This document shows, piece by piece, positions 2-29,469 of a DNA stretch of 56,169 bases (positions within the stretch are counted from its first letter, which is position 1; every line of letters begins with the position of its first letter). The translations under genes were made by a program, and so were the position numbers. The stretch is from Candidatus Kapaibacterium sp. (GTDB lineage: Bacteria > Bacteroidota > Ignavibacteria > Palsa-1295). The DNA is taken from contig JBKJTP010000084.1 in the NCBI GenBank assembly GCA_046590195.1, forward strand, positions 1 to 56,169. Direction: 5' to 3'. The notes beneath the pieces were generated by a model, which worked only from the letters and a program-made list of their open reading frames with translations, searched no databases and had not been told where the DNA came from.

Positions 2-1285
2 ACAGTCTGGCACAATGATGCTACTAATCTCTGGTACATTTGGGATGGTTCGGATTTCGTTCTTGCCGAGCCAATGTATTACCACGAAGACCCTTATCCG
101 TCACCACGTCTTGCCGGCTTTTACTGGTACGACATCACAACCAGTCTACTCAAGCGTTGGAGTGGTACCGCATGGGTGACCACGGCGCACACCACAACTG
201 TGGTTGGTAATGTAATCGGTTCGTTCTGGTTCAATAGTGTTGACGATGAGTTATTTTCGTGGTCTGGTACTGCATGGGTGGCCTCTATTGGCCTTGCGTC
301 GATTGTGATGGTACCACCGACCCTCAGCACGGGTAGAAGCTACTTGTCGTTCTACACTCGCGATATTGGCTGTTCCTCTAGCATTGAGGTTGTATCCGGT
401 TCAACGCTCCTGTTGGCGCTCCTAACGCAGCCTGTCATCTTCACTGATCCTGTTAGTGGTGAAGACGGCAAGGTTGGTGGAACGCTAGCTAAGCAGCTTG
501 GTGTCGGTGATGACGGTAGTCCAGACGAACGCCGCACACTGCATAATGATATCCGTTCCATGCTTGGTCATCCTGTGATTCAGGTCGAATTGACAAAGGA
601 ACAATTGGACATTTGTGTTGACTTGGCGCTACGTGAACTCCGCAAGTATTCGTCATTCTCCTACAAGCGTGTGGTGTTCTTCCTCGACCTCAAGCCGAAC
701 CAGCAGACGTACCTAATGACCAATCGTTGTGTTGGCTTCAACAAGATTACCGGTATCAACTCCATCCATCGTTCTCGTGGCTTGGCGATGAGTTCCGCTT
801 CGATTGATGGTGACATGTTTACTTACGCTGCAATCCAGCGCCTGTACACCATGGGCACCTTCGACATGTTGACATACTATCTTGTTTCTGCCTACATGGA
901 AGAACTGGAAACGCTATTCGCTAATCGAATTATGTTCAACTGGAATGAGTTGGACCGTGAGCTTGGTATCTTCCAGAAGGTCGGTAGAAACGAGCGTGTG
1001 CTTATAGACGCCTTCATCGAGCGTACCGAACAGGACTTGATGATTGACCGCCAGACGGGCTTGTGGCTTCAGCGGTGGGCTCTGGCTGAGGCCAAGCGCA
1101 TCCTGTCGCAGAGCCGTGGCAAGTTCCAGACTCTGCCGGGTCCGAACGGCTCCACGACTCTCAATGCGCAAGACCTACAGCAGCAGGCTCAGGACGAGAT
1201 GGAAAAGCTACGTGAACAACTTGAAGACGGAAGCATGCAGAATTATACTGGTCTTGGCTTAAGAGCGCATCTGATTATGGGGTAA
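2..1285 (+). CDS. neck protein, T4 gp13-like; 5' end runs off the window; N-terminal Trp-rich repeat extension
   Basis: The frame is open from nt 2, with no stop before the listed ATG at 74. The C-terminal ~270 aa match remembered T4 gp13 blocks: LGHPVIQVELTKEQLDICVDLALRELRKY vs T4 [29 protein letters not shown], plus the C-terminal WLQRWALAEAKRIL...EKLREQLE block. The N-terminus has 3 copies of a [FL]W[YF]x(10-14)Wx(2-4)W[VI] motif. Confidence 0.65.
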   Translation, partial: TVWHNDATNLWYIWDGSDFVLAEPMYYHEDPYPSPRLAGFYWYDITTSLLKRWSGTAWVTTAHTTTVVGNVIGSFWFNSVDDELFSWSGTAWVASIGLASIVMVPPTLSTGRSYLSFYTRDIGCSSSIEVVSGSTLLLALLTQPVIFTDPVSGEDGKVGGTLAKQLGVGDDGSPDERRTLHNDIRSMLGHPVIQVELTKEQLDICVDLALRELRKYSSFSYKRVVFFLDLKPNQQTYLMTNRCVGFNKITGINSIHRSRGLAMSSASIDGDMFTYAAIQRLYTMGTFDMLTYYLVSAYMEELETLFANRIMFNWNELDRELGIFQKVGRNERVLIDAFIERTEQDLMIDRQTGLWLQRWALAEAKRILSQSRGKFQTLPGPNGSTTLNAQDLQQQAQDEMEKLREQLEDGSMQNYTGLGLRAHLIMG

Positions 1286-18979: not shown

Positions 18980-19402
18980 ATGGCTAAGATAGCTAAGAAG
19001 AACTCAAAAAGTATTAGCGCCAAGGAAATCAAGGCGTGGCTACGAGGCATACAAGAGTTTCAGCCGGAAGGTTGGACTCCAAGTAAAGCTCAGTGGGATG
19101 CGATCCGTGACCGTATTTTCTCACTTGACGAGGATGTAGTGGAACATTCACAGTTTGAAGTCTCGCGTTCGACACGCGTAGTCGATTTCGTCCCGGCCCC
19201 GCAGTTTGCGCCACCGGCCCATGGGTTTCCACAGATATCGAATAACGAAACCTATGTAGCTGCTACTCCAATGGGTCCGTCTATACTGGCCGATACAGCT
19301 AACGCGACAGCTAAAAACGTTAAGTTGAAGCCGGCAGGCGATGGCGGTGTGTCTGTAATTGCAGACCCGACTGCCGAAGGCGAGTACAAGTCTCCATTCT
19401 AA
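18980..19402 (+). CDS. hypothetical protein
   Basis: ORF with an ATGA-type junction to the next gene. Confidence 0.5.
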   Translation: MAKIAKKNSKSISAKEIKAWLRGIQEFQPEGWTPSKAQWDAIRDRIFSLDEDVVEHSQFEVSRSTRVVDFVPAPQFAPPAHGFPQISNNETYVAATPMGPSILADTANATAKNVKLKPAGDGGVSVIADPTAEGEYKSPF

Positions 19403-19941
19403 TGCAGACTGTGTTGAAAGACAGAATACTCTGGTTCGATGGTGATTCCACTATCGAACCAGATGTTCTTGCGGATATCGTCCTAAAAGGATTAAAACTC
19501 AAGAAGGGTATCTTCGTGAGTGAGGTCACAGACGAGATTGAGCAGTTCAATCGGATTTCCACTTATCAGCTTGAAGAAAAGACCGAGAACCGCCCGTTAT
19601 CATTTGACTGGAATATCCCGGAGAAGTATATAGAGATGAATCTCCGGACGTTCTTTCTAGGCAAGCTGGCCGAAGAAGCCGAATGGAATATAAAGCTTTC
19701 GCAATCAGACTTGGAAGAACGAATCAAGAGAATCGACGTTGAACTGGACGCGTATTACCAGTCAAATGTCAACATGTTGCTCCGTTCGACCCTGTTCATC
19801 ATAGATACCTTTAAGGAGAAAAACGTGGTATGGGGGGTAGGCCGAGGCAGCGCCTGTAGCTCATATATACTGTATCTTGCTGGCGTTCATGATATAGACA
19901 GCGTAGCCTACGAATTGGATATCAGTGATTTCCTTCGCTAA
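19402..19941 (+). CDS. DnaE (Pol III alpha)-like fragment 1: palm segment up to the ERFL helix; no PHP domain
   Basis: VWGVGRGSACSSYILYLAGVHDIDSVAYELDISDFLR* aligns to E. coli DnaE [39 protein letters not shown]. Upstream, EERIKRIDVELDAY... aligns to YDERLETELQVI.... The ORF stops exactly where DnaE continues into PDFDVDF. Confidence 0.65.
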   Translation: MQTVLKDRILWFDGDSTIEPDVLADIVLKGLKLKKGIFVSEVTDEIEQFNRISTYQLEEKTENRPLSFDWNIPEKYIEMNLRTFFLGKLAEEAEWNIKLSQSDLEERIKRIDVELDAYYQSNVNMLLRSTLFIIDTFKEKNVVWGVGRGSACSSYILYLAGVHDIDSVAYELDISDFLR

Positions 19942-23203: not shown

Positions 23204-23211
23204 TATAAATA
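23204..23211 (+). promoter_or_regulatory. T4-type late promoter TATAAATA upstream of the fibre gene cluster
   Basis: Exact TATAAATA, 27 nt before the ATG at 23238. Confidence 0.5.
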
Positions 23212-23237: not shown

Positions 23238-24527
23238 ATGGCTAACTGCGCTGAAAATGTATATGTAATCAAATACACCGATATCGCCAAGGGTACGATT
23301 ACGATCACCAAGTCTTCCTTGGTTACGAATCTGATCGACATCGCGCTGGTCGGTAAGTCGCGTCTTGATTACGGCGAACTATTCGACGAGAACCTACTCC
23401 ATCTTCTAGAGAACTTTGCTTGCCCGGAAGACTCCGGTACGCCGGGTACTCCTGATCTGTCCGAAGCCTATGGCACCCTTCTAAGCAATCCTATTCAGGG
23501 TCAGAAGTGGTACAACTCAACCAATGGTTATCTGTATATCTTCAGCAACGATGAGTGGATTTGTCAGGGGCGTCAAGGCGACGTTGCTGGTAACTCCGGC
23601 GTCATTGCCCATGGCGCGTATCTTCCGCAGCCTGTTAACTCCCTCGGTTACGTGTTCCCGTATGCAGAGTGTAGCTTCGTTGTAAGTCCTCATTCCTATT
23701 TGGCTACTGATATTACCGGCCTCCCGGCTGATATAGAAGTTGATTTCATGACGTGTAATGTCGATGCAAATGGGCTAGTAACAATGCAGTTCCGTTATCG
23801 CGGTGAGTCTTCTCTACGAGACGGTTACGTCAATTATCAGATTATTGGTATCCGTGGTGAAACCAACGGTGCGGTCATGGTGGTAACACCATACCCTGTC
23901 CCATCTCCGACTCCGGGTGTGAGCCCGACAATTACACCAACGATGACGCCTACGAAGACGGTCACACCGACCCCAACGAAGACCCCGACACCGACCCCGA
24001 ACTTGTCTGTCTCGGTAACACCGACGAAGACGGTAACCCCAACACCGACGATTACTGTCACCCGTACAGTAACTCCAACACCGACACCGACGAAGACGGT
24101 AACCCCAACTCCATCGCCGTCTACTGCGGCAGCACTGGACCTGAGTCGTTTCTCCGGGCTTATTGGTACCACCAGTCTCCACAATCCGGCAGCAGTGGTT
24201 GTCACATTCGATGTTGATGGTACATGGGCTATTGATAGAATTCCGGGTACGGATGAGACCGGAACTTTCCTTGCTTCCGGTGATACATCAGAATATGAGT
24301 TTGAATTCTCCTATACTGGTGATGACGACCCATCCGGTGGCGCTTATGTCCCAAGTACATGGTATCCTGTAGCAGACGGTATTTACTTGTCTATTTCTGA
24401 TGCTGTTGTTGGCTCAGGTTTTAATTCCTCATTGTGTGTGTTGACCATGCGTAAGATTAGTAATAATGCCATTTCCGAGACCGCATCATTCACAATGCGT
24501 GCAGACGGTAATACATACGACGGATAA
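23238..24527 (+). CDS. fibre-like structural protein, paralogue A (conserved N-domain, PT linker, unique C-domain)
   Basis: Its N-terminal ~215 aa are shared with the ORFs at 24583 and 27054 (blocks listed in the findings). Followed by an 80-aa Pro/Thr linker. Confidence 0.7.
   Translation: MANCAENVYVIKYTDIAKGTITITKSSLVTNLIDIALVGKSRLDYGELFDENLLHLLENFACPEDSGTPGTPDLSEAYGTLLSNPIQGQKWYNSTNGYLYIFSNDEWICQGRQGDVAGNSGVIAHGAYLPQPVNSLGYVFPYAECSFVVSPHSYLATDITGLPADIEVDFMTCNVDANGLVTMQFRYRGESSLRDGYVNYQIIGIRGETNGAVMVVTPYPVPSPTPGVSPTITPTMTPTKTVTPTPTKTPTPTPNLSVSVTPTKTVTPTPTITVTRTVTPTPTPTKTVTPTPSPSTAAALDLSRFSGLIGTTSLHNPAAVVVTFDVDGTWAIDRIPGTDETGTFLASGDTSEYEFEFSYTGDDDPSGGAYVPSTWYPVADGIYLSISDAVVGSGFNSSLCVLTMRKISNNAISETASFTMRADGNTYDG
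23886..24125 (+). repeat. Pro/Thr-rich linker-coding low-complexity repeat (paralogue A)
   Basis: TPYPVPSPTPGVSPTITPTMTPTKTVTPTPTKTPTPTP...TVTPTPSPS. Reiterated ACN-CCN codons create spurious antisense ORFs. Confidence 0.85.
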
Positions 24528-24582
24528 TCGTCTGGTGATAGATATAGAGATGTAAAGCGGTACCAAATCATAAGGTAATAGA

Positions 24583-26883
24583 ATGTCGGATTACAACGTA
24601 AAGTTTACAGACACCAACAAAACTCCCATTCTCGTCGAACAGGATGCTCAGAAGTCAACCGAAACGGACCTCGTTCTGTTCGGTCGAAGCTTCTTGGAGT
24701 ATGGTGAACAACTGAATGAGAATCTGGTAAAGATACTAGAGAACTTTGCATGTTCCGAAATGGCAGCACCACCGGAAGCTGGCGATTGGCCCGACACCGA
24801 TCTTACCGTCAATGAGACACTTACCGAGCCACTCGAAGGTCAGTTGTGGTATAACACCACGAAGCAGGCCCTGTACAATTACAACGGTACCATGTGGATT
24901 CCGCTGGTGACGGGTTCGGACTATGCTGCCAATTGGGGACAAGTCACAGACGGTACACTATTACCGCGTCCGGTTGCACAAAATGGATATGTTTTCCCTT
25001 ACTCGGAGTGTATCTGGATAGTCTCTCCGGCCGGACATGGCGGTCGATTCGATTATATGGCTTGCACTACAGACGAAGACGCGCAGGTACTGATGCGTTA
25101 TCGTTTACTCGGTGACGACACGCTGACTAGCGGTACCGCAAATTATCTCATTATTGGTATTCGTGGTAACACTAACAACGGTACCATCGTTGTGGACCCG
25201 CCGATTTATGTCGAGCCGAGCCCAACACCGGGTGCATCCCCGACACCGGCACCGTCAAGTACGCGTCCGCCGACTCCAACTCCAACGAACACACGCACTG
25301 CAACGCCGACGATTTCGTTGACGCGTACACCGGTACCGTCCGCCTCACGTACTCCACCACCAACACCATCACCACGTCCGGCTCTCGCCATGAACATCGT
25401 TGACAGTGCCCGTGGTGGTGACTACGTGGACTCCATCAGCCTATGCAACATGGGTGACTACATCTCGACCTTGGACGTTGGTAATCAGGGTTGCACGGTA
25501 ACTATCGGTAACTGCACCTCCGGTGCATGCGCTCCGGAACCGGGTGATTTCTCCACGGGTGACGTAGCAATCGGTGCGGCTATGGGTATCACTGTAACCG
25601 GTGGCACTGCACCGTACACCGTCAGATTCAAGACCTTCACCGCTACGAGCGGCGCGGCAGCATTTGCAGCTAGTGGCGACTGTCTGTTCATCGGCGGTAG
25701 TTCTGGTTTCAGCACACTACCAAGCGGAACAGTCTATTCTTTCATCATCCCGACCGATGGTGGTAGTCAGGATGGCATCACAATCAACGCTTCATGCGGT
25801 GACGATGTTTACACGCTGACTGGTAACTTCACAGTTGAGGTAACGGATTCCGTTGGTACCATCATATCGGAAACATTCCCTTACACCGTAGAACGTAAGA
25901 ACGAAGCAGCTTGCTATGACATCACCGATTTCCGCTCCGGATTTATGCTATCTGATAGTAATGGTGGGTCTTCAAGTTGTGATGGTAGCGCCATGGCGTC
26001 CTCCGGTACACCTACTAACTGGCTAGCGAAGACGGCCAGCGTAAACTACACATCGTTCAATTCGAACGTCGGAGCGCCAAGCAAGGTAATCATGTCCGGT
26101 ATTCCGAAGTGGTGGCCGCGTCCGGCGGCGCGTGTGACATTAACCATTACACACCCACTAGCCGGCTCTGCTCCGGTAACAGTAACGGCGTTCCGTGATA
26201 CTGGTAGAGCTAGCGCGGCTAATGGTGTATCGACCGGAACCGGTTCAGTTACTATTGGCGCGCATACCTATACCGTGACACTGTCGATAACAGTAGGATA
26301 CACCGGTAAGGACCAAATTGATGGTGTGTGTAATGATATTTACTACTACAATATCAGTCCGTCCTTCACAATTTCTCCGGCTATTACTTCTTGTTCAGCA
26401 CTGACACCGCCGGGTGGCGCACTCTATGACGGTGGTGGTGGTGGTGGTTGTGTTACGACCGAATCCATGATTTACGGTAGTGGCCTAGCTTCCGGCGTCA
26501 TGGTCGGTGCGACCATGACGGTCATCGACCCATCCAGTCTAGAGTTGGGTACGGGTATTGTTTCTCTGGCCGACATCAAGCTACAGCCTTGCGTGCGAAT
26601 CACTTCCGAGTCAGGCGTTGTGCTGGAATGCTCGACAACCGCTCCAATCGCTAACAGCGACGGTGTGCAGGTTCTAGCTCCTGACCTGTTGGGTGTCGAA
26701 GTGCTTGTCTACGACAATGGTGTGGTGCGTTCTGAGAAGGTTGTGAGTGTTGAAGACATCGGTGACAAGGAAGTCGTCCACATCACGGTAGAGAACAACT
26801 ACTTCTTGGCCGGTGCCGAAGACGGTCGTTACTTCTTCCACCATAATATCAAAAACTTCATTGGCGGGTTACAGCCTTACTAA
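24583..26883 (+). CDS. fibre-like structural protein, paralogue B, with a C-terminal Hint (intein-like) domain
   Basis: Shared N-domain, PT linker (25195-25380), a ~350-aa G/S/T-rich region, a Gly6 run, then the Hint domain. Confidence 0.75.
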   Translation: MSDYNVKFTDTNKTPILVEQDAQKSTETDLVLFGRSFLEYGEQLNENLVKILENFACSEMAAPPEAGDWPDTDLTVNETLTEPLEGQLWYNTTKQALYNYNGTMWIPLVTGSDYAANWGQVTDGTLLPRPVAQNGYVFPYSECIWIVSPAGHGGRFDYMACTTDEDAQVLMRYRLLGDDTLTSGTANYLIIGIRGNTNNGTIVVDPPIYVEPSPTPGASPTPAPSSTRPPTPTPTNTRTATPTISLTRTPVPSASRTPPPTPSPRPALAMNIVDSARGGDYVDSISLCNMGDYISTLDVGNQGCTVTIGNCTSGACAPEPGDFSTGDVAIGAAMGITVTGGTAPYTVRFKTFTATSGAAAFAASGDCLFIGGSSGFSTLPSGTVYSFIIPTDGGSQDGITINASCGDDVYTLTGNFTVEVTDSVGTIISETFPYTVERKNEAACYDITDFRSGFMLSDSNGGSSSCDGSAMASSGTPTNWLAKTASVNYTSFNSNVGAPSKVIMSGIPKWWPRPAARVTLTITHPLAGSAPVTVTAFRDTGRASAANGVSTGTGSVTIGAHTYTVTLSITVGYTGKDQIDGVCNDIYYYNISPSFTISPAITSCSALTPPGGALYDGGGGGGCVTTESMIYGSGLASGVMVGATMTVIDPSSLELGTGIVSLADIKLQPCVRITSESGVVLECSTTAPIANSDGVQVLAPDLLGVEVLVYDNGVVRSEKVVSVEDIGDKEVVHITVENNYFLAGAEDGRYFFHHNIKNFIGGLQPY
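25195..25380 (+). repeat. Pro/Thr/Ser-rich linker-coding repeat (paralogue B)
   Basis: DPPIYVEPSPTPGASPTPAPSSTRPPTPTPTNTRTATPTISLTRTPVPSASRTPPPTPSPRP. Confidence 0.85.
26449..26847 (+). other. Hint / bacterial-intein-like autoprocessing domain at the fibre C-terminus
   Basis: Begins with Cys after GGGGGG (CVTTESMIYG, block A-like). Block F-like VVHITVENNYFLAG. Ends FFHHN (block G His-Asn). The +1 residue is Ile, followed by only 11 aa (IKNFIGGLQPY). Confidence 0.6.
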
Positions 26884-27053
26884 TGTATATCATCGTCCGA
26901 CACAAAGATAATGTAATCGTAGGCAACGCTCTTCGTCCGGTTGACGAAGTTCAGTTGTCCAAAAATGGCTATAAGGTATTCGAGATAGATGACTCCGAGT
27001 TCTCTATCTCAATGCTGGGCTCCAAACTGGACGGGTTTCAAGAGGTTAAGTAA
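26883..27053 (+). CDS. small hypothetical ORF (56 aa), below the ORF-track cutoff, between fibre paralogues B and C
   Basis: ATG overlaps the upstream stop (TAATG) and its own stop abuts the next start (TAAATG). Translation: MYIIVRHKDNVIVGNALRPVDEVQLSKNGYKVFEIDDSEFSISMLGSKLDGFQEVK. Confidence 0.4.
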   Translation: MYIIVRHKDNVIVGNALRPVDEVQLSKNGYKVFEIDDSEFSISMLGSKLDGFQEVK

Positions 27054-28259
27054 ATGACAGTCTACAAGGTAAAGTACACCCTAGCGGACAAGACTCCAAT
27101 TTCCATTCCGGAATCGGAAGTCGATAGCTCGACGGCCGTAAAGTTATTCGGTCGTAAGAAGCTCGCTTACGGTAAGGACTTGAACGAGAACCTACTACGC
27201 CTTCTGGAATCATTCTCCTGCCCGGAACTCGCTGCTACGCTTCCGGTCACCCCGGACGCGGACTCGCTGGCAGACGCTACCGTATTTGCAAACCCGGTCG
27301 AGGGTCAGTTGTGGTTTAATTCAACTAGAGAAACCCTCTATGTCTGGGACGCGACAGAGTGGATTGAGCATAAGAAATTTGGTGACATTGCCGCGAATTG
27401 GGGTATAATTGCATCTGGCGGTCAGATTCCACTACCCGTCTCGTCCAACGGTACAACTTACACATACGCAGAGTGTTCATGGATTGTTAGCCCGTGGGGT
27501 TATCCAAACGCTATAGATTTCATGCGGTGTTTTACTGATGACGACGCCAACGTGACGATGGAGTATTCTCTGGAAGCCTCCGGTAGTAACGTCGCAGGCT
27601 TCGCAAATTACATCATCATCGGCATTCCGGGTAACGTCAATCTTGGTGTTACACTGCCACCTGTTTCCATGACACCGACACCGACAGTCACGCCGACAAT
27701 TTCCATAACGCCGACCATGACACCGACACCAACGCCGACAACTTCGGTAACGCCAACGTTACCAACGTCACCAACCCCAACCCCGACAATTACGGTCACG
27801 CCGACAATTACGGTCACGCCGACACCGACAATTTCCATAACGCCTACACTTTCCCTGACACCAACGCCGACAGTTTCCAGCGGCGCGTTGATTTCAATGC
27901 CAGCGGAAGGTACGGAAATCTCGTCGTTGGAATCCGCAGCAGCACCGGCCACGGCGGACTTTGCACTTCAGTCGGATGGTGATTATGCTTACTTCGAATT
28001 TGCCACACTTCCACCACGGTGGTTGGTCAGTGGTACTCCGAGTGACTACGAATGTCGTGTTATTCAAACGAGCGGCTCGTTCGACGCCGGTTCTGCTACG
28101 AATACATGGCTAAACCTCGGAACGACTCGTTCGTGGCATAATACCTCCACACTACCACAGACCATAAACTTCACGCTTGAAATCCGTAATGCTGGTACGC
28201 TGGTTAGCTTTGGTGTAGTTAACATGGTAATGTACACTGAAGGTAACATTGGCGCATAA
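27054..28259 (+). CDS. fibre-like structural protein, paralogue C
   Basis: Shared N-domain, PT linker (27654-27875), unique ~125-aa C-domain. Confidence 0.7.
   Translation: MTVYKVKYTLADKTPISIPESEVDSSTAVKLFGRKKLAYGKDLNENLLRLLESFSCPELAATLPVTPDADSLADATVFANPVEGQLWFNSTRETLYVWDATEWIEHKKFGDIAANWGIIASGGQIPLPVSSNGTTYTYAECSWIVSPWGYPNAIDFMRCFTDDDANVTMEYSLEASGSNVAGFANYIIIGIPGNVNLGVTLPPVSMTPTPTVTPTISITPTMTPTPTPTTSVTPTLPTSPTPTPTITVTPTITVTPTPTISITPTLSLTPTPTVSSGALISMPAEGTEISSLESAAAPATADFALQSDGDYAYFEFATLPPRWLVSGTPSDYECRVIQTSGSFDAGSATNTWLNLGTTRSWHNTSTLPQTINFTLEIRNAGTLVSFGVVNMVMYTEGNIGA
27654..27875 (+). repeat. Pro/Thr-rich linker-coding repeat (paralogue C)
   Basis: LPPVSMTPTPTVTPTISITPTMTPTPTPTTSVTPTLPTSPTPTPTITVTPTITVTPTPTISITPTLSLTPTPT. 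Confidence 0.85.
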
Positions 28260-28267
28260 CCATAACC

Positions 28268-28921
28268 ATGCCCCTTAAAATAAAGAACATAACAACTTCG
28301 AAGACCGTAGAGCAGGGAAGATTGGAGTGGGCGGAAACCCTCTCCCATCGTAATAAACTGCTCACCTCTTCGGATTGGACCCAGCTTCCGGACTCCGGTC
28401 TTACGTCTGAGTGTGTTGAGAACTGGCGTATCTGGCGAGGCATCGTCCGGCAGCTTCGCAAGGACAATCATCCTGACCGTAATCTTGTTACGGAGCAAAT
28501 CAATCGTCTTACTCGTGCCAAGCCCGTCAACCGATGGGCCGACGAGCCTGAGATTGCGTTGCCTCTTCTCGATAACTCATTCGCTAGCCATCAAAAGCGC
28601 GTCATGGATTACATGGACGTGATGTTCAACGATGCCGCCACTGTCAAGTCATTCCTCGAACATCCTCTCCTGATAGATGCCGGCCTCCGGAAGGCAGAAA
28701 AGGAGCTTGGTATATTGGGTAAAATTGGAATCCTATCCAGAAAAATATGGTCCGATAAACTATTCGAATTGAATCACCGAAGGAATGTTAGTGTAGCCCG
28801 TATTTTCAAGCTACAGAGCAAGTACTTGGAGTTTTCCGAGCTTGTCAAGAACGCCACGGCTACTGTAGAATTGCAGACACTACAGGTAGAAATAAAGCAA
28901 TGGATATCGACATTGACTTAA
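28268..28921 (+). CDS. possible tail-fibre assembly/chaperone-like protein
   Basis: The N-terminal RNKLLTSSDWTQLPDSGLTSECVENWRIWRGIVRQLR matches the remembered tail-fibre-assembly signature (LL..SDW..lpD......W..YRq.LR). Lies directly after the fibre paralogues. Confidence 0.35.
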   Translation: MPLKIKNITTSKTVEQGRLEWAETLSHRNKLLTSSDWTQLPDSGLTSECVENWRIWRGIVRQLRKDNHPDRNLVTEQINRLTRAKPVNRWADEPEIALPLLDNSFASHQKRVMDYMDVMFNDAATVKSFLEHPLLIDAGLRKAEKELGILGKIGILSRKIWSDKLFELNHRRNVSVARIFKLQSKYLEFSELVKNATATVELQTLQVEIKQWISTLT

Positions 28922-29469
28922 GGTCGGACTTCAAGGTGGAGCGGGTGTTCAAGCATGTAACGCCCGCTTCTATGGTAGAGAAGGATGAACTTAAGCGACA
29001 TAACGTTGGCGCGTACTTCCAGAAGATTCCGCGTGACCCCATCTCCAATCTCGCCGCAATCCCCTATGGGGAGGCGGAGGAATTGGGCTATCTGAAAATA
29101 GACTTCCTTTCACTAAATTTACTGTCCAGTTTCGAGACTAAGGCCGAAGTTTTACACTTCGCCCGCAAGGAACCAAACTGGAAGAGATTGAACGATGAAC
29201 AGTTCGTAGAGAAGCTATTCCACATTTCCAAACACTATGACATGGTTCAAAAGGTCAACCCACGTTCCGTACTGGAACTGGCTGACATTCTGGCTCTGAT
29301 TCGACCGGGTAAAACCATTCTTCTGGATAAATACCTGAAGAACAAGAAACTGACGAGGAAGGAACTGTACACCAAGCGGCAGGTATCGGACCTACGAAAG
29401 TCCCATGCCATAGCTTATGCAGTCAACATCGTCATTAATATGAATCTGGTTGAGGCCGGAATACTATGA
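28900..29469 (+). CDS. DnaE (Pol III alpha)-like fragment 2: catalytic palm aspartates plus an abbreviated fingers region
   Basis: MDIDIDL (DnaE PDFDVDF), RHNVGAYF (HAGGVVI), GYLKIDFLSLNLLS (GLVKFDFLGLRTLT, third catalytic Asp), LADILALIRPGK (MIALVALFRPGP), LRKSHAIAYAV (FNKSHSAAYAL). The thumb is almost entirely missing. Confidence 0.7.
   Translation: MDIDIDLRSDFKVERVFKHVTPASMVEKDELKRHNVGAYFQKIPRDPISNLAAIPYGEAEELGYLKIDFLSLNLLSSFETKAEVLHFARKEPNWKRLNDEQFVEKLFHISKHYDMVQKVNPRSVLELADILALIRPGKTILLDKYLKNKKLTRKELYTKRQVSDLRKSHAIAYAVNIVINMNLVEAGIL

Follow-up and report, generated by a model that had tools for sequence, protein, structure and literature searches.

The DNA analyzed here, hereafter the window (56,169 nucleotides), is a whole 56-kb contig (C43; GenBank JBKJTP010000084.1) of a 3.38-Mb metagenomic bin deposited as Candidatus Kapaibacterium sp. 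It derives from an uncultured myophage whose relatives include the Xanthomonas jumbo phages XacN1 and Xoo-sp13 and the Stenotrophomonas jumbo phages CM1 and RAS14. On its forward strand lies a cassette of three tandem paralogous genes, here called A (positions 23238 to 24527; 429 amino acids), B (24583 to 26883; 766 amino acids), and C (27054 to 28259; 401 amino acids). An earlier note on this DNA, made from the sequence alone, had placed the three open reading frames (ORFs) at these same positions and read them as fibers that share a virion anchor and carry interchangeable distal modules. Each protein starts with a shared N-terminal domain (N-domain), followed by a Pro/Thr-rich tether and a distal part, the tip. 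In A, the N-domain covers residues 1 to 213 (nt 23238 to 23876), the tether residues 214 to 303 (nt 23877 to 24146), and the distal domain residues 304 to 429; in C, the corresponding parts are residues 1 to 199, 200 to 283 (nt 27651 to 27902), and 284 to 401. B has a more elaborate layout, with an N-domain (residues 1 to 201; 24583 to 25185), a tether (residues 202 to 271; 25186 to 25395), and two distal domains encoded at 25396 to 26430, namely d1 (residues ~272 to 461, with a GGTAPY motif) and d2 (residues ~462 to 616). Its 3′ end, at 26431 to 26880, encodes six glycines (residues 617 to 622), a Hint domain from Cys623 to Asn755 (nt 26449 to 26847), and an 11-residue tail, IKNFIGGLQPY.

The genes are arranged as an operon in the order late box, A, B, a 56-codon ORF, C, and a gene resembling tail-fiber assembly chaperones. 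The box, TATAAATA, lies on the forward strand at 23204 to 23211, 27 nt before the ATG of A, and was read directly as the T4-type late-promoter consensus; by analogy with T4, it would be a late promoter in the window phage. Where 1.6 copies would be expected, the window has six copies of TATAAATA, every one of them on the coding strand. In each of the seven compared loci that include the first paralogue, a NATAAATA box precedes that gene by 32 to 34 nt. Inside the cassette, terminators and sigma-70 promoters were not predicted above chance. The small ORF (26883 to 27053, forward strand) matches no family; its start overlaps the stop of B (TAATG), and its own stop abuts the start of C (TAAATG). 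The chaperone-like gene (28268 to 28921, forward strand; 217 amino acids) begins 9 nt past C and is the last of the cassette. It passes the threshold for PF16778 Phage_tail_APC (E = 1.5e-6, 28.4 bits, cut-off 26.6), also matches phrog_4697 (tail assembly chaperone) and phrog_4912 (tail fiber assembly), and holds the same position in the related loci L008 to L013, XacN1, and RAS14. An adjacent cognate assembly chaperone of this kind is typical of phage tail fibers and receptor-binding proteins.

The shared N-domain of about 200 residues, proposed in the earlier note, is highly significant. All three proteins match phrog_15511, a PHROG family of unknown function, over residues 1 to ~290, with E values of 1e-97 to 1e-103 (A, 1.5e-97; B, 2.4e-103; C, 5.2e-98). 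The N-domains are 38 to 44% identical to one another, and a search of the window's own genome recovered the other two copies at 1.9e-55 and 3.7e-43, with no further copies in the 3.38-Mb bin. The sequence motifs listed in the note are a fair consensus, although several hold for only two of the three proteins (AGNSG in A versus AANWG in B and C; CSE in B versus CPE in A and C). Copies in XacN1, Xoo-sp13, CM1, and RAS14 are 46 to 52% identical, and megablast found no near-identical DNA to the locus among GenBank phages. An exhaustive search of 1.84 billion representatives, clustered at 50% identity, yielded 170 clusters that match the N-domain at E ≤ 1e-30. Among the best 150 of these 170 matches, the N-domain begins within the first ~20 residues in nearly all, in proteins of 154 to 1786 amino acids, and a Pro/Thr stretch follows it in 104 of 126 family representatives. 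In the wider family, tips can be of SprB, fn3, DUF285, or Hint type, and the presence of adhesin-type tips speaks for a fiber or adhesin cassette. A conserved N-terminal attachment region joined to an exchangeable C-terminal region is the arrangement of phage tail fibers and receptor-binding proteins. Three cysteines are nearly invariant across the family (B residues 57, 143, and 161, in ENFACPE, Y.EC.W, and M.C.TD) and could form disulfides or a metal site.

Pfam scans of the whole proteins, of their pieces, and of 23 N-domains returned no meaningful family, and neither the N-domain profile nor the whole of B found anything meaningful among Protein Data Bank (PDB) sequences. An AlphaFold2 model of the N-domain of B (mean pLDDT 77.5) shows a confident β-sandwich at residues 85 to 200, with residues 1 to 60 at low confidence and a helix at residues 40 to 54. 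By fold, this model had no PDB match below E = 1e-3, the best being a phage tail fiber (4mtm, E = 0.03). In a viral fold library, it recovered its own family at E = 1e-21 to 1e-23, and its weak further matches were mostly tail fibers, tailspikes, and collagen-like phage proteins.

Reading the N-domain as an anchor is best supported by a protein of Agrobacterium phage Atu_ph07. The N-terminus of this protein, AUZ94958, matches the N-domain profile at positions 15 to 104 (hmmsearch, 4e-14) and phrog_15511 at 3e-15, and its C-terminus matches phrog_19602, 'tail fiber protein' (8e-21). The calculated masses of AUZ94958 (66.07 kDa) and its neighbor AUZ94959 (21.66 kDa) are those of gp176 and gp177 in Table S5 of PMC6102473. 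There, gp176 is a virion protein detected by electrospray ionization tandem mass spectrometry (ESI-MS/MS; 14 unique peptides, 36.2% coverage), and gp181 and gp182 are listed as baseplate wedge proteins. The gp176 gene adjoins that of a giant structural protein. Similarly, RsoM2USA_355 matches the N-domain profile at positions 3 to 106 (hmmsearch, 1e-16), and its gene adjoins genes for a structural protein confirmed by mass spectrometry, the tail sheath, and the baseplate. By homology, the first half of the shared N-domain is the N-terminus of a real fiber-type virion protein. The ~105 residues in question are N-terminal in both gp176 and the cassette proteins and comprise a strand region, the YGE..ENL..LLE.F helix, and a W-Y-N hairpin. 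Unlike A, B, and C, gp176 has neither the β-sandwich subdomain nor a Pro/Thr tether; it carries the hairpin three times, has a classical tail-fiber-type C-terminus, and is encoded as a single copy beside baseplate genes. The β-sandwich (residues ~110 to 200) is taken to be specific to the family of A, B, and C.

The Pro/Thr linkers proposed earlier are real, with a Pro plus Thr content of 50 to 62% (50% in B), although they are 70 to 90 residues long rather than 60 to 80. At ~0.3 nm per residue, such a tether would span an estimated 20 to 25 nm, and it may possibly be O-glycosylated. The virion of XacN1 is reported to contain at least two glycoproteins stained by periodic acid–Schiff (PAS), which are not identified in the accessible text of PMC5852040. 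In A, B, and C, no shaft-type Pfam repeats were found, and what lies between anchor and tip is a low-complexity Pro/Thr stretch rather than the structured, usually trimeric, shaft of a tail fiber. The word 'fiber' is therefore loose for these proteins. The earlier note had also regarded the linker DNA as near-repetitive and as offering recombination points for module swapping. This part did not hold: the linker repeats are only 60 to 70% alike, and exact matches between the linkers of any two genes reach at most 10 to 14 nt, those between the N-domain DNAs being no shorter (13 to 14 nt). Linker repeats as recombination substrates are thus ruled out at the DNA level.

The distal parts measure 126 (A), 495 (B), and 118 (C) amino acids, roughly as first described, but they are not completely different from one another. 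We compared a tip profile of A and its orthologues with one built from C, XacN1 ORF237, ORF234, and ORF233, RAS14 gene 1, L011_A, and P0032. The two profiles align (hhalign probability 87%, E = 3.9e-6, 105 columns), which makes the tips of A and C distant homologues; only B differs. The distal domain of A is homologous to the first distal domain of its positional orthologues in L010, L009, and L012, and A lacks the second domain, of ~150 amino acids, that these orthologues carry. The C tip has homologues in the tips of XacN1 ORF237, ORF234, and ORF233, RAS14 gene 1, and L011_A. In P0032, the segment ahead of the Hint domain can be aligned with the C tip by eye; a protein search with this tip found only two relatives. 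In B, d1 is 48 to 78% identical in all B orthologues and 25 to 28% identical to the tips of C-position genes in L008, L009, and L012. By contrast, d2 is common only to L010 and L008, is replaced in L009 and L012, and is missing in L011. Neither d1 nor d2 matches Pfam or PHROG. In L013, the B-type gene (447 amino acids) lacks the Hint domain and ends where its first distal domain does.

Tips do not track N-domains, and the comparison of related genomes supports the idea that C-terminal domains are swapped between relatives. Within the clade of close relatives, the N-domains of positional orthologues are 65 to 77% (A), 64 to 68% (B), and 58 to 64% (C) identical, whereas the tips of the C orthologues are not homologous to that of C. 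The C tip is missing from these positional orthologues, whose tips resemble B d1, and occurs on differently placed genes in XacN1, RAS14, and L011. The reverse is seen between C and P0128 of locus L013: identity is 49.5% in the N-domain, 65% in the tether, and 84.8% in the tip (76% at the nucleotide level), with the jump placed at the tether end. The flanking chaperone-like gene and polymerase fragment of the same two loci are 30% and 65% identical at the amino acid level. Third-position identity rises only modestly in the tip (54% versus 42%), so the exchange cannot be a recent one; less probably, tighter constraint on the tip caused the jump. A module swap at the linker, as first proposed, thus has a mosaic boundary in its favor in one relative and exact DNA identity of just 10 to 14 nt against it. 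Taken together, these patterns support module exchange between related phages.

The last 144 residues of B, from Cys623 (after GGGGGG) through FFHHN to IKNFIGGLQPY, contain the Hint domain. Its AlphaFold2 model has a pLDDT of 91.2, and the best 50 Foldseek matches in the PDB are all inteins, bacterial intein-like (BIL) domains, or Hedgehog Hint domains (E = 7e-8 to 3e-4; TM 0.54 to 0.74). No Pfam sequence family matched the domain, and a profile search of PDB sequences with the Hint family ranked inteins first. In nearly all 34 Hint homologues, the pattern is G|C...HHN; a non-nucleophilic residue comes next, and the +2 position is usually Lys. Cys1, the N-terminal nucleophile, is invariant in the 24 aligned members, and Gly precedes it in nearly all. 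The TxxH motif of block B is absent: the family has ECSTTAPIA, with Ala aligned to the His of the gp41-1 intein (CSEEH). Because this His is missing, N-terminal cleavage may be slow or need a trigger. A splicing intein is ruled out, since there is no +1 nucleophile (Ile in B; I, V, A, L, M, or K in nearly all 34 homologues) and almost nothing, just 11 residues, lies downstream. A polymorphic-toxin arrangement, in which a PT-HINT domain frees a toxin, is likewise ruled out for B by those same 11 residues. The features that remain are those of a type-A BIL domain, with HHN and a non-nucleophilic +1 in nearly all homologues and the BIL structure 2lwy among the fold matches. B would most likely cleave itself at Gly622|Cys623.

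Compared with type-A BIL and Hedgehog Hint domains (2lwy, 6y75, 1at0), the Hint domain of B has the same fold (TM 0.68 to 0.69), a Cys1 right after Gly, a C-terminal His-Asn, no +1 nucleophile, and a terminal position on a presumably extracellular protein. It differs in the absent block-B His (TTAP), in a near-invariant Lys two residues after the Asn, and in being carried by a phage fiber-like protein. We found no paper in the literature describing Hint or BIL domains on phage fibers. Self-cleaving C-terminal intramolecular chaperones of the Peptidase_S74 type are known from the K1F endosialidase and T5 pb1. The likeness to these is that a C-terminal module would be expected to leave a fiber protein autocatalytically after assembly; fold and chemistry are unrelated, with thioester formation and Asn cyclization in Hint versus a Ser-Lys dyad in S74. 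Other members of the fiber family end in Hint_2, PT-HINT, or Intein_splicing domains, and in P0210 and P0032 the Hint domain follows a C-type tip. In XacN1, it lies on a separate gene of 285 amino acids without an N-domain, and RAS14 has none. Given this variable placement, the Hint cap is a mobile, optional module. A second family (P0011 to P0028, ~520 to 600 amino acids) has the same Hint domain in mid-protein and no fiber N-domain, with ~135 amino acids before it and a Gly/Ser/Asn-rich region of ~250 amino acids after it; cleavage there would release two sizeable pieces.

The family's closest known counterparts are modular phage receptor-binding proteins (RBPs), such as T4- and T7-type fibers, the multi-RBP sets of Klebsiella jumbo phages, and the Alteromonas fiber-plus-chaperone modules of PMC10579305. 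As in these systems, the N-terminus is conserved and the C-termini vary, a genome has several paralogues, diverged phages have exchanged tips, the fiber genes have a chaperone-like neighbor, and expression is probably late. The cassette is unlike them in having a Pro/Thr tether instead of a structured trimeric shaft, an N-domain without a detectable Pfam or PDB relative, a location inside the replication region, and an attachment to the virion that is here presumed. XacN1 ORF237 to ORF232, with ORF231 to ORF229, and the arrays of Xoo-sp13, CM1, and RAS14, all annotated as hypothetical, belong to the same family; in PMC5852040, the gene table lists XacN1 ORF232 to ORF237 only as hypothetical proteins. 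These arrays also follow the clamp loader and three small genes and come with a late box, a small ORF, and a chaperone-like gene. They differ in that XacN1 and RAS14 have six paralogues at the matching position, against three here, and the N-domains with their tips show no clean one-to-one orthology to those of the window. The full order of clamp loader, three small genes, A, B, small ORF, C, and chaperone-like gene is kept in the metagenomic relatives L009 to L012, and partly in L008 and L013, whose contigs start inside the array. A jumbo-phage overview makes no mention of this fiber family.

On balance, we favor the reading that the cassette is a late-expressed operon making three kinds of thin, flexible appendage, or host-binding fiber, on the phage particle. 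The earlier proposal of a common virion anchor with interchangeable distal modules thus gains from the late box, the chaperone-like gene, the homology to gp176, and the module exchange, without being proven. The operon would be transcribed late; beyond this step, we infer the following. The first ~105 residues (strand region, helix YGE.LNENL..LLENF, and W-Y-N hairpin) would dock each protein on the virion, with gene context in distant relatives weakly favoring the baseplate or tail periphery as the site. The Pro/Thr stretch would act as an extended, possibly O-glycosylated tether that holds the tip 20 to 25 nm off, and the tip would be a small module binding host-surface or matrix components. 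Because A, B, and C share one kind of anchor, different tips (three here, six in XacN1) would be presented from the same kind of site. Exchange, gain, and loss of tips between related phages, at or near the tether, could then retarget binding. B would be made as a precursor, and its Hint domain would cut itself off at Gly622|Cys623 after folding or assembly, leaving a poly-Gly end. The chaperone-like protein, and perhaps the 56-amino acid protein, would assist assembly. The latter may be a small assembly factor; its ORF is conserved better than its neighbors (67 to 79% identity in L008 to L012), is 49 to 52% identical to XacN1 ORF230 and its RAS14 counterpart, and is present, though uncalled, in L013 (1846 to 2016).

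Several observations weigh against this interpretation. The homology to gp176 spans approximately the first half of the N-domain only, at 27 to 31% identity, and for A, B, and C, as for XacN1 ORF232 to ORF237, the link to virions is an indirect one. The N-domain model is only moderately confident, and its fold matches outside the family are weak (TM 0.2 to 0.3). No shaft-like repeat or trimerization element was identified in the three proteins, the Hint domain has CSTTAP in place of the usual block-B histidine motif, and the identification of TATAAATA as a late promoter comes from the comparison with T4. The cassette also lies outside any structural module: replication genes surround it, with the clamp loader on one side and a DnaE fragment on the other. 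Finally, the authors of PMC5852040 saw no tail fibers on XacN1 by electron microscopy. Thin tethers could escape negative stain, which would explain the absence of visible fibers.

The same absence would suit a different arrangement, in which A, B, and C are Hoc-like head-decoration 'hairs', with the N-domain on the capsid lattice and the tips providing weak adherence to surfaces, slime, or mucus instead of primary-receptor recognition. Hair-like appendages are present in jumbo phages of the wider group, and those of Atu_ph07 have been described as sitting mainly on the capsid. A small tip on a flexible tether is more decoration-like than a rigid receptor-binding fiber, and several paralogues with one anchor suit a many-copy lattice site. 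However, the proteins of Atu_ph07 and RsoM2USA that share the N-terminal subdomain are encoded near tail and baseplate genes, the C-terminus of gp176 is of tail-fiber type, and the gene adjacent to C resembles tail-fiber assembly chaperones. There is no similarity to Hoc or other known decoration proteins: in place of tandem Ig-like domains and a capsid-binding C-terminal domain, the cassette proteins have no Ig-type Pfam matches, a conserved module at the N-terminus, and no PDB relative. We therefore consider head decoration unlikely.

A location among replication genes would be less surprising if A, B, and C were late non-virion proteins acting in or on the infected cell, for instance, in envelope remodeling, superinfection exclusion, or lysis. 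Linkers rich in Pro/Thr are familiar chiefly from cell-wall proteins and secreted cellulases, and those of the cassette would resemble the linkers of secreted bacterial enzymes. One RAS14 paralogue (WAX21725; L002, 12001 to 13044) is even annotated as a D-alanyl-D-alanine carboxypeptidase. Yet this protein consists of an N-domain, a Pro/Thr tether, and just 57 residues more, so its label looks unsupported and is apparently spurious. No enzymatic domain was found in A, B, C, or 76 relatives, and no signal peptide or hydrophobic segment is apparent by eye in the N-termini of A, B, and C. The chaperone-like neighbor, the late box, and the virion homologue each argue that the proteins are structural, and we regard a non-virion role as quite improbable.

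The earlier note had further hinted at a neck or collar location, because a W[YF]N...W motif recurs in the window's gp13-like neck protein. This protein (2 to 1285) is cut by the contig end and matches phrog_211 (head-tail adaptor Ad2) at E = 6.5e-92. It covers only positions 561 to 966 of the 976-position profile, which implies that the neck family has a very long N-terminal extension. The hairpin does recur three times at the 5′ end of the gene, as W[YFH][ND]...W.G..[WF] motifs starting at nt 8, 125, and 227 (8 to 58, 125 to 175, and 227 to 277, forward strand; a relation of motif only), and the extension thus seems to be built partly of such hairpins. Since the same hairpin is repeated three times in gp176 and finds matches in several unrelated PHROGs, it seems to be a generic unit and gives no real evidence for a neck location. 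That A, B, and C are neck or collar whiskers, with the N-domain docked on the neck protein as T4 fibritin is on the gp13/gp14 neck, is very unlikely: the long extension and its alignment to the N-domain profile (hhalign, E = 7.7e-5) speak for it, but this likeness amounts to some 30 residues of one β-hairpin (33 columns, probability only 62%), a motif in common does not imply binding, and the baseplate and tail genes beside the N-terminus sharers of Atu_ph07 and RsoM2USA point, weakly, away from the neck.

Small ORFs at 19402 to 19941 and 28900 to 29469 flank the clamp-loader genes and the fiber cassette, and their orthologues in relatives are labeled DNA_pol3_alpha and, weakly, DNA_pol3_finger (Pfam); together, they look like a split DnaE-like polymerase. 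Immediately after the neck gene, an ORF at 1342 to 2160 carries a T5orf172 domain (E = 2.2e-5) and is probably a mobile endonuclease-type gene.

Relative to phage fibers, two features of the cassette are unusual: the Pro/Thr tether that replaces a shaft and the optional Hint cap. A bolder joint reading, to which we give only a slim chance, is an unrecognized appendage composed of a folded docking head, a long, probably glycosylated Pro/Thr line, and a small exchangeable lectin-like tip, with the His-less Hint domain of B as a built-in ligase and no mere throwaway cap. The Hint domain would then convert the poly-Gly C-terminus into a thioester to be captured by an amine, fixing the tip covalently. 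Candidate amines would be the near-invariant Lys two residues after the Hint domain, another virion protein, or a group of the host envelope.

By our preferred reading of host-binding appendages on the phage particle, an uncharacterized but widespread family is built along the known lines of modular receptor-binding proteins. With 170 clusters at 50% identity, this family is large, and it is entirely unannotated; naming its parts would improve the annotation of many environmental phage genomes. Its Pro/Thr-tethered design and Hint-capped tip offer a simple, testable system in which to study how tips are exchanged and how a virion protein may process itself. XacN1-like jumbo phages have a wide host range, and no tail fibers have been seen or annotated in XacN1. 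A concrete candidate for their host-recognition or adherence apparatus is the conserved, probably late-expressed array, whose three to six proteins combine a common anchor with swappable tips.

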